From Acidobacteriota bacterium (GTDB taxonomy: Bacteria; Acidobacteriota; UBA890; WLXD01), in contig CAXWPH010000012.1 of the NCBI GenBank assembly GCA_963666055.2, positions 32,001 through 96,000 of the forward strand: a stretch of DNA of 64,000 nucleotides, read 5' to 3'. Positions within the stretch are counted from its first letter, which is position 1. Every line of letters starts with the position of its first letter. Below are positions 19,425 to 61,630 of the stretch, piece after piece. Below the pieces are notes generated by a model, which worked only from the letters and a program-made list of their open reading frames with translations, did not search any database and was not told where the DNA came from. Made by a program: the position numbers and the translations under genes.

Positions 19425-20501
19425 GTGGCGCATGCGGGAACCAACGTGAACCCACTGCTGAGTGTTATCGAGCAACAGGTGCGTGATCAGGCAAGAGACC
19501 TGGCCCTCGAGCACGTTGCACCTCGGGCGGCGGTTATCGATAGCTCCGGTTGCTGCCCGGACGAGCTCGTGCAGCGGCTCTGTGCGCTGATCTCCGACCA
19601 CGTCGACGGCGCCTGCCCGACGCCGATGCACCTGGCCTTGCGTCTGGAACAAGTGGCTCGCCACAGCGCCGCAGCGGCGGCCATTGCGGCGGCCCACGGG
19701 GTCGGGAGCTTCATCGCACGCGACCACGGCAAGCTCGACGCGCCGGTGGCCGACAATGGCCCCATCTACGTTGCTGTCTACGGCGGCACCGCCCTTTCGG
19801 CGGAGGCGTCCGACGATGGAGTGGTGTTGCAGGGAACCGTCGACCTGGCACCGGGCGCAGCCTACGCGACGGCCTTCGTGGTGGCCTGCGAGCAAGGAAG
19901 CGCCGCCGGTGTCTTCGTCGTTCTCGCCAACGCCGACGGCGTCTCCGTCGGACCTACGGAGGTCTTGATGGGCCTGGCGGGCAGCGGCACGGCTTCCATC
20001 ACGTGGGCAGGGGCCCGGCTGACGCCGTCCGCGCGGGTGGGGGATCTAGAACAGGTCTCGAGGCTCCTGGACGCCACGCGTATCGCTCACGCAGCCCAAG
20101 CGGTGGGGATCGCAACGGGCGCGCTGGACGCCGCTTTGACGCACTTGGCCTCTGCCAACACTGCCGAGGATATGCGCCAGCCGCCGCAGTCAACTCAGTG
20201 GATGCTGGCCGATATCGCCACCGAGTCGGAGGCGGCGCGGCTGTCGCTGTGGCACGCTGCGCTGGAGCTCGGTACCGGCAACGCGTACGAGGCCGGTGCG
20301 ATGTGCCGCCTGCTGGCAGCCGAGGCCGCCGTCGCAGCCAGCCGCCGCGCCATACAGATAGTCGGGGAACAAGGTACCCTGCGCGCCTCGGTGTTCGAGC
20401 GCCTCTACAGGGATGCGAAGGTCATGGAGGTGCTGGGCGGTACGAACGAAGACCAGCTTGGAATCATCGCCGACGGGCTGCTACCTACCCTGCCGCGCTA
20501 G
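19425..20501 (+). CDS. Divergent acyl-CoA dehydrogenase family protein (probably non-catalytic)
   Basis: C-terminal ACAD helices (RIAHAAQAVGIA, QWMLADI, ERLYRDAK); TEPxxGSD motif absent; LGGT in place of YEGT. Confidence 0.75.
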   Translation: MAHAGTNVNPLLSVIEQQVRDQARDLALEHVAPRAAVIDSSGCCPDELVQRLCALISDHVDGACPTPMHLALRLEQVARHSAAAAAIAAAHGVGSFIARDHGKLDAPVADNGPIYVAVYGGTALSAEASDDGVVLQGTVDLAPGAAYATAFVVACEQGSAAGVFVVLANADGVSVGPTEVLMGLAGSGTASITWAGARLTPSARVGDLEQVSRLLDATRIAHAAQAVGIATGALDAALTHLASANTAEDMRQPPQSTQWMLADIATESEAARLSLWHAALELGTGNAYEAGAMCRLLAAEAAVAASRRAIQIVGEQGTLRASVFERLYRDAKVMEVLGGTNEDQLGIIADGLLPTLPR

Positions 20502-20776
20502 CAGGCCGTGGTGAAAGTGTGGTGGGTCTGGCGACAGGGTCTTGCGAAGTGCAGGCAAGGAGAGAGGAGGAGGCGATGGTTACCCCATCGTTGACGAGGA
20601 ACGACGCAGGATACGCGCGCAACCCCCTGTCGCCCGAAGGGTTACGGCGATTTGGGGCCATTCGCAGCGTTGGCCTTCCTCAACGATGGCTAGGGCATCG
20701 CCTGTGTCAGGCCGCCTTGCATCTGGCCCCAACTCACCGTAACCAGACCCACCACACTTTCACCACGGCCTGCTAG
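20498..20776 (+). mobile_element. 279-bp MITE-like element, copy 1
   Basis: Perfect 34-bp TIRs CTAGCAGGCCGTGGTGAAAGTGTGGTGGGTCTGG (20498-20531 / 20743-20776); near-identical copies at 42910 and 58980. Confidence 0.9.
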
Positions 20777-22166: not shown

Positions 22167-22502
22167 GTGAGCGATGGCACCATCGAGCTGACGACGGAGA
22201 ACTTCGAGAACGAAGTGCTGCAAAGCGACCTCCCGGTATTGGTCGACTTTTGGGCTGTTTGGTGCGCCCCGTGCCGCATGATCGCCCCGCTTGTAGAAGA
22301 GCTTGCCGGGTCCTATGCGGGCAAGGTCAAAGTCGGCAAGCTCAACGTCGACGATCACGGTGACGTGGCAACGCGCTACAACGTCCGTGGCATTCCCACC
22401 CTGCTGCTGTTCCATGATGGCGAGGTACAGAACCAGATGGTTGGGGCTGCATCGCGCGACACCATCATGGAAATGCTCGACAAGGTGACCGCCGTAGCCT
22501 AA
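22167..22502 (+). CDS. trxA: Thioredoxin
   Basis: VLVDFWAVWCAPCRMI, GIPTL. Confidence 0.95.
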   Translation: MSDGTIELTTENFENEVLQSDLPVLVDFWAVWCAPCRMIAPLVEELAGSYAGKVKVGKLNVDDHGDVATRYNVRGIPTLLLFHDGEVQNQMVGAASRDTIMEMLDKVTAVA

Positions 22503-22694
22503 GCAGGCGGTGATGGAAGTCTGGCGGGCCTGGCGGCAGGGTCTTGCGCGGCGGCGGCAAGGAGAGAGGAGGAGGCGATGGTTATCCCATCGTTGACGAC
22601 GAACGACGCAGCATACGCTCGCAGCCCCCTGTGGCCCGAAGGGTTACGGCGATTTGGGGCCATCTGCGATGTTACTTCCCCCACCGCCTGCTAG
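22500..22694 (+). mobile_element. 195-bp variant of the MITE-like element, copy 2 (second arm absent)
   Basis: Shares the GGGTCTTGCG...GCAAGGAGAGAGGAGGAGGCGATGG...GGGTTACGGCGATTTGGGGCCAT core. Has its own 19-bp terminal IR (17/19 paired) and ends in CCTGCTAG. Confidence 0.82.
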
Positions 22695-42130: not shown

Positions 42131-42913
42131 GTGTTGCGGATTCATGTCCTCGGCTCGGGCAACGCTGCCGCCGGGCGCCGCCGTGACACCACTGCCCTGG
42201 CGGTGGAAGCCGGCGGCGAGTGGACCCTGGTGGACTGCCCCGGTGGAGCAGTGCACAAGCTGGCGTGCCTGGGCGCCGATCTCGCCGACCTGCGGCGCCT
42301 GCTGGTGACACACAATCACGTCGATCACGTCTACGGCTTCGTCCATCTGGCGCACGCTCTAGTTTTGTCAGCAGAGCAATCGCCCCTCGTCGTGCATGCG
42401 CCTGAGCAGACCCTAGAAACACTACGCGCCATGCTTCAGATTCACGGGCTCGATGCCGCGTGCGCCGATCGCCTCGACCTGCGAAGTGTGGCGCTGCGAC
42501 CGGATACCGAGGTTACCGCCTCTCCGGCCGGCCGCATTGTTGCGACACCGGCGGCCCACAGCCGCGACACCCTCGCGTTACGCTTCGAGCAAAGCGGCCG
42601 GGCGTTTGTCTACGCCTCGGACACCGGTCCCAGCGACGCGGTGGCCGCCTTGAGCTCCGACGTCGATCTCCTCATGCATGATTGTGCCGGGCTGCACCGG
42701 GATCTCGCAGCCTTCGAAGGGCAGCACTCGAGCGCCCGCCAGGCCGGTGAGATCGCCGCAGCAGCCCGGGTCGGGGAACTGAGCCTGACCCATCTGGGAG
42801 AGGCGAGCGAGCACACCGAGGCCGATCTGCTACGCGAGGCGAGCGAACGCTTTAGTGGCCCCGTGGTTGCTGCCGCGGATGGTGATACGTATACCCTGGC
42901 GCCAATCGCCTAG
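42131..42913 (+). CDS. MBL-fold metallo-hydrolase, short RNase Z/AtsA-like
   Basis: LGSG, DCPGG, THNHVDH, SDTGP, HSS, LTH; no exosite arm. Confidence 0.85.
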   Translation: MLRIHVLGSGNAAAGRRRDTTALAVEAGGEWTLVDCPGGAVHKLACLGADLADLRRLLVTHNHVDHVYGFVHLAHALVLSAEQSPLVVHAPEQTLETLRAMLQIHGLDAACADRLDLRSVALRPDTEVTASPAGRIVATPAAHSRDTLALRFEQSGRAFVYASDTGPSDAVAALSSDVDLLMHDCAGLHRDLAAFEGQHSSARQAGEIAAAARVGELSLTHLGEASEHTEADLLREASERFSGPVVAAADGDTYTLAPIA

Positions 42914-43188
42914 CAGGCCGTGGTGAAAGTGTGGTGGGTCTGGTTACGGCGAGTTGGGGCCAGATGCAAGGCGGCCTGACACTGGCAATGCCCTAGCCAT
43001 CGTCGAGGAAGGCCAACGCTGCAGATGGCCCCAAATCACCGTAACCCTTCGGGCGACAGTGGGTTGCGCGCGTATCCTGCGTCGTTCCTCGTCAACGATG
43101 GGGTAACCATCGCCGCCTCCTCTCTCCTTGCCTCCACTTCGCAAGACCCTGTCGCCAGACCCACCACACTTTCACCACGGCCTGCTAG
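42910..43188 (-). mobile_element. 279-bp MITE-like element, copy 3 (inverted)
   Basis: Same 34-bp TIRs; interior is the reverse complement of copy 1 with a few substitutions. Confidence 0.9.
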
Positions 43189-58979: not shown

Positions 58980-59258
58980 CTAGCAGGCCGAGGTGAAAGT
59001 GTGGTGGGTCTGGCGACAGGGTCTTGCGAGGCGCAAGCAAGGAGAGAGGAGGAGGCGATGGTTACTCCATCGTTGAGGAGGAACGACGCAGCGTACGCGC
59101 GCAACCCCCTGTCGCCCGAAGGGTTACGGCGATTTGGGGCCATCTGCAGCGTTGGCCTTCCTCGACGATGGCTAGGGCATCGCCTGTGTCAGGCCGCCTT
59201 GCATCTGGCCCCAACTCGCCGTAACCAGACCCACCACACTTTCACCACGGCCTGCTAG
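58980..59258 (+). mobile_element. 279-bp MITE-like element, copy 4
   Basis: Same TIRs (one mismatch in the left TIR); about 12 substitutions versus copy 1 by manual count. Confidence 0.9.
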
Positions 59259-61630
59259 GTGCGTACCCCGAGCGCCTGGTAACCGCCGAGCGACAGGAAC
59301 ATGAGATGCGGCGCCCAGGCCGCCAGCCCCGGCGGCAGCTGGCCGGCATAGCCAAGGGCACGAAACACTCCGAAGGCGATCCAGTAGACGGCCACCAGGG
59401 CGATGGCGATTCCAACGCCGGTGAGAGCGCCCTGCCGGCCCATCCGGAAGGCGAACGGTATGCCGACGACGGTCATCACGAAGACGATCGCCGGCGTGGC
59501 AGCCTTCATGTTCAGATCGACCAGAGCTCGATGCGTCTCATAGCCTCGCTGCCGCAACAGCTCGACGTGCTGTTGCAACTCGAGCGTCGACATCTGCTCG
59601 GGTTGACGAGGGCTCTCTCCGAAGTAGGCCGGGGTGAGCTCGATCGGTAACACGGAGAAGCGGAATTCTTCGAGCTCGGTGGGCGATAGGTTGGCGGACT
59701 CGTCCTCGGCGACGAAGTAGCGGCGCCAGCCGTCGTGCCCCTCCCAGCGGCCGTTGGTGAACTCAGCGCGATCGGCGAACTCCATCCGCGCAATGCCGCC
59801 CGTACCGTCGTCGAGGTAATAAACACGTAGCCCGAGGAGCTGCGGTGGCTCGGCCACGTACTCGGCGAAGTGGAAGACCCGGCCACCCTCGGAAAACACC
59901 CAGGTCTGATCGCGCTGCAAGCTGACGGCGCCGGTGGGGTTCATCTGCTCCTCCACGATGGCCGCCTGCTGCGCTGCCACAGGTAACACGTAGTCCTGCA
60001 CGCCGTACTGAGTAGCAGTCAGCGCCACTGCCGGCAGCAGGATCGGCAGCATCAACCGATAAAGGCTGACGCCGCCTGCGAGCGCCGCCACCACCTCGTT
60101 GCGCTTCGCCATGAGACTGAAGGTGGCGAGCACCGTGACCACTGCCGACATGGGCAGAACATTGAAGACGATCTCCCAGATCTGGAACTTCATGTACGTG
60201 GGGATCATCTCCGGATGGGTCACGTACGACGCCTTGTCGATCCATGTCGTGGTAGCAAAGATGGTCACGAAGGCGGCGAACGTAAGCACCCAAATGGCAA
60301 CGTAGCTGCGCAGTACGTAGCGATCGAGGAGACGCGGAAAACTGGCACCGCGGCGGCGTCCGGCGCGCCGTGCCGGTCGGCGGAGCAGGTCGCGGAAGCG
60401 CTGCACCAGGGCGCTGCGGCGCTCGAGCAACGGTTGTATTCGGCGGACGATGCCGAAGTCGACCTCGCGACTCTTCTTCCACAACAGCACCAGCGCCACT
60501 GTACCCATGATCAAGTTGCCGGCCCACATGCCCAACCACGGCTGGATGTTGCCGACATCGCCCTGCTGCTCGCCGTTCTGGAGGAAGAAGTAGTAGACGA
60601 CGATCACCACTGTGCCGATGCCAAAACCGGCCGCCGTGGTCTGTCGTTGGGTCGATATGCCGAGCGGCAGTGAGATGAGTCCCATGACGATGCAGGCAAA
60701 CGGGAAGGCGTACTTCTTGTGAACTTCGACCTGCAGGTCGTAGGCGGGGTCGCCGACTTGCTGACGGTCCTTGATGGCCCGTCGCAGTTCCGTCAACGTC
60801 ATCGAACGCCCGTCCTTGCCAAGCTGCCCTAGTACCGACCCGTCCTCTTCCTCGGAGTAGATCAGCATCGTCTGGCGTTCGAAGCGTGTCACCGTGGCTT
60901 CGAGCGGGTCCTTGGCCGACCCGATCAGGGTGCCGTTCTCGAGGAGCAAATAGGTCTTACGCGTATCCTCGTCGATACGCAGGAAACCCCGCTCGGCACG
61001 GACAATATTCGGCGGGTCGTTGTCTGTCCGCGCCGCGAAAACTCCACGCCACTCGCGCCCGTCGTCGACAATGTCCTCGATGTACAGCACCAGGCCGGGA
61101 AAGTCCTCGATGAACACACGTGGCTTGATCTCACCGGAGAAAGCGCGCTTGGTGATCGTTTCCCAGTTCATCTCCCGCAAGCTCGTATTGCCCCACGGAA
61201 GCGACACCATGAAGACGTAACTGGTCACCGCCCAAGCGATGCCGGCCAGAATCAACACCGGAGGCATCAGATGCAGAAGGCTGACTCCCGAGGCCCTGAG
61301 GGCGACGATCTCGAAATCCGACGACATGCGACCGAACGCAATCAGACCGCCAACGAGCAGTCCCATCGGAAGGGTCAGCACAACGATGAACGGCAGGCTG
61401 TAGACGATCGCCCACAGCACCGTTGCCAGCTCGGCGCCGTACTGAATCCAGATCTGCGAGATGCGCAATAGGAAGCGCATCAGCATGAGAAACGTGAACA
61501 CTCCGAAGCCAAGCAACGTGGGAGCGATCATCTCCTGGATAACGTGCCGCCACAGGATGAACGCCGGCCTGAACCGACCTGCCACCCGGCTGAGGCCGCT
61601 CACCGGAGCCTCATGTGCCAGCGTGCTCAT
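59255..61630 (-). CDS. Fused LPS export permease LptF-LptG
   Basis: Two tandem YjgP/YjgQ units (GRMSSDFEIVALRASGVS; KRNEVVAALAGGVS; AAWAPH). Confidence 0.9.
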   Translation of the reverse strand: MSTLAHEAPVSGLSRVAGRFRPAFILWRHVIQEMIAPTLLGFGVFTFLMLMRFLLRISQIWIQYGAELATVLWAIVYSLPFIVVLTLPMGLLVGGLIAFGRMSSDFEIVALRASGVSLLHLMPPVLILAGIAWAVTSYVFMVSLPWGNTSLREMNWETITKRAFSGEIKPRVFIEDFPGLVLYIEDIVDDGREWRGVFAARTDNDPPNIVRAERGFLRIDEDTRKTYLLLENGTLIGSAKDPLEATVTRFERQTMLIYSEEEDGSVLGQLGKDGRSMTLTELRRAIKDRQQVGDPAYDLQVEVHKKYAFPFACIVMGLISLPLGISTQRQTTAAGFGIGTVVIVVYYFFLQNGEQQGDVGNIQPWLGMWAGNLIMGTVALVLLWKKSREVDFGIVRRIQPLLERRSALVQRFRDLLRRPARRAGRRRGASFPRLLDRYVLRSYVAIWVLTFAAFVTIFATTTWIDKASYVTHPEMIPTYMKFQIWEIVFNVLPMSAVVTVLATFSLMAKRNEVVAALAGGVSLYRLMLPILLPAVALTATQYGVQDYVLPVAAQQAAIVEEQMNPTGAVSLQRDQTWVFSEGGRVFHFAEYVAEPPQLLGLRVYYLDDGTGGIARMEFADRAEFTNGRWEGHDGWRRYFVAEDESANLSPTELEEFRFSVLPIELTPAYFGESPRQPEQMSTLELQQHVELLRQRGYETHRALVDLNMKAATPAIVFVMTVVGIPFAFRMGRQGALTGVGIAIALVAVYWIAFGVFRALGYAGQLPPGLAAWAPHLMFLSLGGYQALGVRT

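Follow-up and report, generated by a model that had tools for sequence, protein, structure and literature searches.

Directly behind an acyl-CoA dehydrogenase gene of an Acidobacteriota genome lies a 279-bp sequence that can be drawn as a Y, with CTAG at both of its ends and once more in the loop of one arm. What kind of element is this, how does it move, and what are its two similar arms for? We analysed it in the window, i.e. the whole stretch of 64,000 nt under study, in the host genome (G000, 5.73 Mb) and in related genomes. We regard it as almost certain that the element is a non-coding MITE of this Acidobacteriota genome. No transposase ORF is present inside the 279 bp, and Rfam searches with the window and with 12 loci (the latter in E-value mode) gave no match to the element at the gathering threshold. 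In the literature, most subscription papers being outside the coverage of our search, we found no description of this element family or of a core common to MITE shells.

The element and its copies

A preliminary description of the locus, made from the sequence alone, had proposed a nested Y-shaped fold composed of two homologous, oppositely oriented arms. The fold and all of the stems named there were recovered: the terminal inverted repeats (TIRs) are perfect (34/34), the stems of arm A and arm B are complementary at 15 of 17 and 19 of 21 positions, respectively, the tips at 6/6 and 5/5, and the two arms are separated by a 5-nt linker, CGAAG. The nested Y is the MFE structure with z = -9.0, and an equally good folding was obtained in none of 100 shuffles; it is the MFE structure under DNA parameters as well. 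When arm A was aligned with the reverse complement of arm B, 59 of the 105 columns were identical, a score reached in none of 1,000 shuffles, which bears out the proposal that the element consists of one module in two inverted copies. The variants of loop A and the CTAG of loop B in the three full copies of the window were also as claimed. The features are summarized in Table 1.

Table 1. Features of the focal element and its other copies in the window
Feature	Position	Strand	Remarks
Complete MITE copy including both terminal CTAG	20498..20776	.	Net insertion 275 bp; based on empty orthologous sites and genome copies
Left CTAG	20498..20501	+	Provides the TAG stop codon of the acyl-CoA dehydrogenase gene upstream (19425-20501)
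Left TIR	20498..20531	+	34 bp; trunk of the Y
Outer 17 bp of left TIR	20502..20518	+	Equals the left end of the IS1182-like IS in G011 (17/17 and 16/17); predicted transposase site
Arm A	20530..20634	+	Hairpin module, sense on + strand
5' half of conserved basal internal loop of arm A (GCAAGGA)	20555..20561	+	Opposite GACGC at 20603-20607
Zipper of arm A	20567..20597	+	Lone G-C pair between two tandem G·A (20567-20571 with 20593-20597); closes apical hairpin
Inter-arm junction CCC-NNN-GGG	20633..20641	.	Present too in most doublets across the phylum
Arm B	20640..20744	-	Second module copy, sense on - strand; basal motif at 20713-20720 and 20667-20672
CTAG in arm B loop	20690..20693	.	Genus-specific; insertion target in other copies; not a guide
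Right TIR	20743..20776	-	34 bp
Degenerate single-arm copy	22500..22694	+	195 bp
Full copy	42910..43188	-	At stop codon of ORF 42131-42913; matching G002 site lacks the element
Full copy	58980..59258	+	Right CTAG contains the stop codon of - strand ORF 59255-61630

The assignment of the host to the Acidobacteriota agrees with 16 above-cut-off matches in G000 to a VWFA family of Acidobacteria type and with the occurrence of the doublet in named Acidobacteriota records. The host genome contains 84 full-length copies with a mean pairwise identity of 93.7%. They belong to the 114 paired elements found by a scan of G000 for the TIRs, which also returned 143 unpaired ends. Matches to the element occur in 20 of 25 genomes of the same order; some of them are full-length, with identities as low as about 70%. 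None of the four congeners has the element at the focal site; a single CTAG is present there in G002 and G004, and CTGA and CTAA are found in G001 and G003, respectively. Five of 110 G000 elements could be placed on 390 kb of G002, where three sites are empty, one holds a 37-bp remnant and one is filled. Placed on G000, eight of nine G002 elements gave two filled sites and six sites scored as empty, although two of these six scores are matches to sister-family loops and not orthologues.

By crude gene calls, 66 of 130 elements stand at a CTAG located at a stop codon, compared with 539 of 2,368 non-genic free CTAGs. No element was called inside a gene, a count that has to be read with the caveat that the insertion itself would split the called gene. 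Plasmid searches gave no match to the element and, for one arm, only weak matches at chance level, and a scan of viral contigs gave no match. G000 also harbours many mini-derivatives of 30-50 bp in which one TIR half and the CTAG-bounded end are retained (e.g. C10:124085, C12:130401 and C15:265413), and the locus L189 (G000:C11:160026-160413) consists of four to five tandem 83-bp repeats of the element tail, each beginning at the loop-B CTAG. A small contig contains a near-perfect inverted duplication of 13 kb (G000:C8:29538-66961), which is possibly a feature of the assembly. Elsewhere in the window, a tRNA gene is located on the minus strand at 2176-2247.

Target site and candidate transposase

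By the focal insertion one CTAG becomes two. A variant terminal 4-mer was found in 24 of 110 G000 elements, in 23 of them on one side and in one mirrored; counted per base from the outermost inward, the variants number 16, 7, 4 and 6. One G002 copy has the ends CTAG/CTCG, and its empty site reads CTCG. Among 25 copies of autonomous ISs, three have a variant on one side only and one more deviates at both ends. Part of this pattern is later mutation; as a whole it agrees badly with a 4-bp duplication made by filling in, and would suit a blunt or carried-over target better. Target use of this type is described for the IS5-related Spy group, whose DDE enzymes insert into the middle of a palindromic target without duplication (PMC4122938). 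This is one reading of the focal ends as well; Spy transposons, however, are eukaryotic and use an AAATTT target, whereas for the focal element the no-duplication reading is only suggested. MITEPsy1 uses CTAG next to an IS5-family partner, and a 4-nt duplication is reported for it (PMC3189936); in the focal family, by contrast, variant targets are mirrored in only 1 of 24 cases.

A search for DUF772 proteins identified in one relative, G011, an IS1182-like IS of about 1.5 kb, of which the ends match the outer 17 bp of the element at 17/17 and 16/17 positions, plus CTAG, so that the outer 21 bp of the element match its end. This IS is present in four copies in G011 and has no arms. It encodes a 472-aa DUF772/DDE transposase belonging to a very large family; the protein matches PF05598 above and PF13751 below the cut-off and stays below every NCBIfam cut-off, the best match being the IS1182 family model NF033551 with 158.6 bits against a cut-off of 270. 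Close copies of the IS were found neither in G000 nor in the 39 other genomes searched (41 genomes including G011), and the long TIR pairs of G000 contain no transposase remnants. Judged from these matching ends, the likely mobiliser of the element is an IS1182-like DDE transposase acting in trans, which would recognise the outer 17 bp. Since the cognate IS is absent from the G000 assembly, we infer that mobilisation takes place in bursts, brought about by a passing IS. Very large expansions of CTAG-bounded DUF772 ISs were observed in G007 and G039 (106 and 84 matches, respectively), and the IS end of G039 is identical in sequence to the TIR of doublets in named Acidobacteriota records.

Other ways of movement were considered. 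The IS5-type element of G000 was rejected as mobiliser, having different ends and TTAA sites, and the single IS630 of G000 was rejected as well. Movement by an IS630 transposase, with duplication of the central TA, would draw on the CTAG-bounded ends of this IS630 and on the outermost base of the terminal CTAG being the most variable, as fits a target narrower than 4 bp; but the IS630 end resembles that of another G000 end family (16/20, by eye) and not that of the focal family, to which the IS1182-like end matches exactly, and central-TA variants mirrored on both sides do not occur, so that we consider this reading very improbable. Still less can be said for transposition in single-stranded form by an HUH (RAYT) enzyme, as with REPIN doublets, the system to which the preliminary description had likened the element. 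REPINs and BIMEs are indeed inverted doublets of one unit in which singlets and doublets coexist, and the focal family has the same architecture with both forms side by side. Its units, however, are 100 nt long as against 20-40 nt, its true TIRs match DDE insertion sequences, and a Y1/RAYT-type transposase (PF01797) was found in only one of 25 same-order relatives and not in G000. As a mechanism the analogy was therefore abandoned.

The preliminary description had further noticed the CTAG in the arm B loop, the same sequence as the putative target, and had speculated that the loop might act as a guide specifying the target. The CTAG is indeed present in all three full copies of the window, but it occurs in only 57 of the 84 full G000 copies, and in 7 of 9 copies from the genus versus 0 of 34 from other genera, even though the ends of these 34, which had been chosen by CTAG at one end at least, are CTAG. 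Apart from the 57 copies, the guide reading can call upon a single G002 copy with CTCG both in the loop and at the right end, the only point of this kind. Against it, loop and end sequence show no association in the 84 copies (Fisher p = 0.77), and autonomous ISs without an arm also use CTAG. We therefore give practically no credit to a guide, and membership in the guide or bridge RNA systems (IS110-like) was rejected, the target sequence not being tracked by the loop sequence. The loop CTAG is itself an insertion target. A scan returned 15 insertion junctions at it, of which 14 were accepted by eye. One of these is a complete nested insertion, and several are products consisting of a full copy plus an 88-bp tail, which are expected from recombination between nested copies. 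The rate per site is about four times that of the whole genome, the tandem tails being non-independent events.

The arm module

Covariation analysis argues that the arm is conserved as a single-stranded fold, as the preliminary description had supposed. In 26 full elements from 13 genomes, double-sided changes were found at 53 of 100 predicted pairs. For 57 arms, each taken in its own orientation, 89.1% of the cells were paired as compared with 67.5% after shuffling, and the covariation was 0.52 as compared with 0.17 after shuffling and at most 0.115 in slid controls; as the arms are related sequences, these counts overstate their independence. From the outside inward, the arm consists of a 19-bp outer helix, a helix of 2-3 bp, an AAG/GC internal loop and a 5-bp helix, followed by a lone C-G or G-C pair with tandem G·A on either side, and then by a 7-bp apical helix carrying a free loop. 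The lone pair is C-G in 45 and G-C in 7 of the 57 arms; four of the G·A oppositions are kept in 53-55 and the fifth in 37 arms, and one mismatch alternates between C·A and A·G. In the 84 full G000 copies the substitution rate is 9.7% in the tip loops, 3.8% in the TIRs, 1.8% in the arm stems and 1.2% in the G·A/AA motifs of arm A. We are rather confident that the arm hairpin of about 100 nt is a selected single-strand fold. Read in the arm's own sense, the 57 related arms contain 82 G·U and 34 A·C oppositions. The G·T wobble and tandem G·A are stable in DNA too, and for this reason RNA and ssDNA cannot be told apart by the strand signal.

The same arm is found between unrelated ends. An arm profile detected 167 loci in G000, with at least three end families, each comprising doublets of about 279 bp and singlets of about 175 bp. 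One of these families matches the IS5/IS1182-type ends of G005 and G007 (16/17). A covariance model of the arm, a search suggested by the preliminary description, gave matches in 41 of 121 genomes of the phylum, 31 of them outside the order. The 23 phylum loci examined comprise 16 doublets, one singlet and six loci without a called TIR, with about 10 end types by eye; whatever the ends, 15 of the 16 doublets are 269-284 bp long, and the remaining one measures 341 bp. In metagenomes, at least 80 loci with at least 82 matches to the basal motif were recovered; 16 are structured elements with further end types, including singlets of 121-126 bp. The doublet is present in named Acidobacteriota records as well; the scan of named genomes was made with a pattern one N too long and returned four loci, from which the taxonomic range cannot be read.

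Two lone arms without TIRs were encountered. In G006, which has no other match to model R1, a well-formed arm is found immediately past the 3' end of the tmRNA, on the other strand (L214:1501-1603), perhaps as a domesticated copy or as a relic. In G001, an arm lies in frame within the N-terminal part of a 598-aa ORF (L205:1501-1602), which resembles an ImuB-type Y-family polymerase. Composite forms occur in G000. In the hybrid at C15:429325-429600 the left end and arm A come from the focal family, and arm B and the right end from the CAGGGTGCTGAA family. At 12 sites (e.g. L190) elements have inserted into each other's terminal CTAG, within one end family or between different ones, giving tandem arrays.

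Hybrids with F1 and F3 halves and the 12 tandem junctions would also be expected if the arms were inherited baggage of one ancestral MITE of which the ends were swapped by recombination, with the compensatory changes produced by template switching and not by selection. Template switching can yield such changes and homogenises the arms of inverted repeats (PMC8604942). It would, however, erase mismatches, whereas here the G·A oppositions and the AAG/GC loops are the most conserved positions and the helices turn over completely; moreover, within the genome the arm stems vary less than the TIRs. We thus hold the baggage explanation to be improbable, and prefer a selected fold.

Several described families share some of these properties. 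Type II MITEs, which insertion sequences mobilise in trans, are alike in being non-coding, shorter than 500 bp, dispersed, polymorphic and stably folded, with only the ends in common with an IS; as far as the cited accounts describe them (PMC10969869, PMC3189936), the focal element differs in that its interior is not a decayed IS but a conserved covarying module common to families with unrelated ends. The bcr1 repeat of the Bacillus cereus group is mobile and has a trunk and two internal stem-loops kept by compensatory changes; it differs, in a comparison made by description, in being about 155 bp long with 5-bp direct repeats, and the cited passages report no arms under other end types (PMC3184786). 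The preliminary description had suggested a resemblance of the core to repeats of some Deltaproteobacteria, for which no sequence confirmation was obtained: a Geobacter repeat family with a central palindrome resembles the 126-bp singlets in a comparison by eye of its figure legend with the singlets (PMC2700814), and motif searches in part of the Geobacter repeat supplements, where the alignments may be pictures, returned nothing.

Resemblance to ERIC and possible role of the arms

The closest likeness is to the ERIC (IRU, RU-1) repeats of Enterobacteriaceae. As seen from the parts of the ERIC literature cited here (PMC2229807, PMC3696847) and from E. coli copies, these form a long hairpin in which the outer stem is topped, at the same height, by the AAGG-stem...stem-AACGC internal loop of the focal arm. 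They are intergenic, and have G·A pairs beside the apical hairpin. The differences are considerable. ERIC is a single arm of about 127 bp with TA ends and is described in the same parts with no doublet, a short TIR only and no named partner IS, whereas the focal element is a 279-bp doublet with CTAG ends; the apical part of ERIC is 56 nt long and that of the focal arm 35-40 nt, without detectable similarity between them.

We compared the arm with E. coli K-12 repeats from the rpsB-tsf region, which contain the published ERIC primer sequences (PMC3696847). A weight matrix of the basal motif, made from acidobacterial arms only, had its best site inside the ERIC repeat in 7 of 15 loci, against an expectation of about 5% per locus. 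Model R1 ranked the repeats first and second in 52 kb, with a best E of 0.027. With model R2, seven of the top eight matches were repeats (best E = 1.3e-4); this result is partly circular. Five rows of R2 are in the wrong strand, and about 19 of its arms come from loci found with a pattern that had been designed after inspection of ERIC. ERIC and the 126-bp singlets from metagenomes can be aligned in register. On the whole E. coli K-12 genome R1 and R2 found nothing, a profile of 12 E. coli ERIC copies matched no module in G000, and profiles of the inner or apical part gave no cross-match between arm and ERIC. Such comparisons give weak to moderate support to a recurrence of the basal motif in E. 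coli ERIC repeats, and the chances that arm and ERIC are homologous appear about evenly balanced. In addition, one E. coli ERIC copy (L232:1494-1617) matches Rfam RF02818, the Vibrio antisense RNA AS5, with E = 3e-7, below gathering, and RF02818 may have been built on an ERIC-like repeat.

As to the function of the arms, we incline slightly to a role as RNA rather than as ssDNA. The possible precedent is again ERIC, which is reported to affect mRNA stability in an orientation-dependent way (PMC2229807, PMC10969869). The RNA runs are shallow; one contig extends from the gene into the TIR, and transcription, ends and strand are not readable at such depth. Single-arm copies show no orientation bias with respect to the incoming gene (12 sense and 9 antisense), which counts against an RNA signal, because an orientation-dependent signal might be expected to give a bias. 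Doublets are biased 30:9 in G000; other genomes do not show this bias (10:8), and it also parallels GC skew.

The main rival to the RNA reading is a role of the arms in transposition of the same MITE as single-stranded or cruciform DNA, in end synapsis, nuclease protection or recruitment of a host factor. This would explain why unrelated transposase families favour one core. It would also agree with the Y being the DNA MFE fold, with the narrow length range of the phylum doublets irrespective of their ends, with the doublet placing one arm on each DNA strand, and with the lack of orientation bias in singlets. On the other hand, the autonomous IS that shares the ends of the element lacks an arm, single modules without TIRs exist (L214, L205), and cut-and-paste DDE transposition acts on duplex DNA. 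We regard a DNA role as rather unlikely, though it is clearly the strongest of the competing explanations.

By a narrow margin of belief, we favour the reading as a whole that the element is a CTAG-inserting miniature transposon, likely mobilised by an IS1182-like IS, with arms that form a single-strand fold likely acting in the host transcript. Passage of the cognate IS through the genome would cause bursts of mobilisation, and copies would survive mainly just behind stop codons, where they would be transcribed by read-through. With a doublet, either strand would, when transcribed, carry one hairpin in the correct orientation, and the internal loops rich in G·A could serve as a recognition surface for an RNA-processing or RNA-binding factor of the host. 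Such a factor would make insertion cheap, and families with the hairpin would persist while their ends are exchanged.

MITE interiors are usually taken as decayed IS DNA, from which the interior of this element differs. More constrained than the ends, it is common to different transposase families, so that something selects for it. The G011 transposase is a candidate partner of known sequence, and is relevant to whether the IS5-related group can dispense with a classical target duplication on insertion. If the basal motif is the ERIC core, the function of the conserved centre of ERIC would be testable in E. coli through defined invariant G·A positions. A wider proposal, which we put forward tentatively and with some doubt, is that the arm is a universal bacterial MITE module, a G·A-zipper hairpin that would be homologous to the ERIC core, interact with a conserved host factor and take its ends from at least two unrelated transposase superfamilies, IS1182/IS5-like and IS630. 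If this is true, the persisting unit would be the fold, the transposon ends would be replaceable, and ERIC would be a member of a cross-phylum family.
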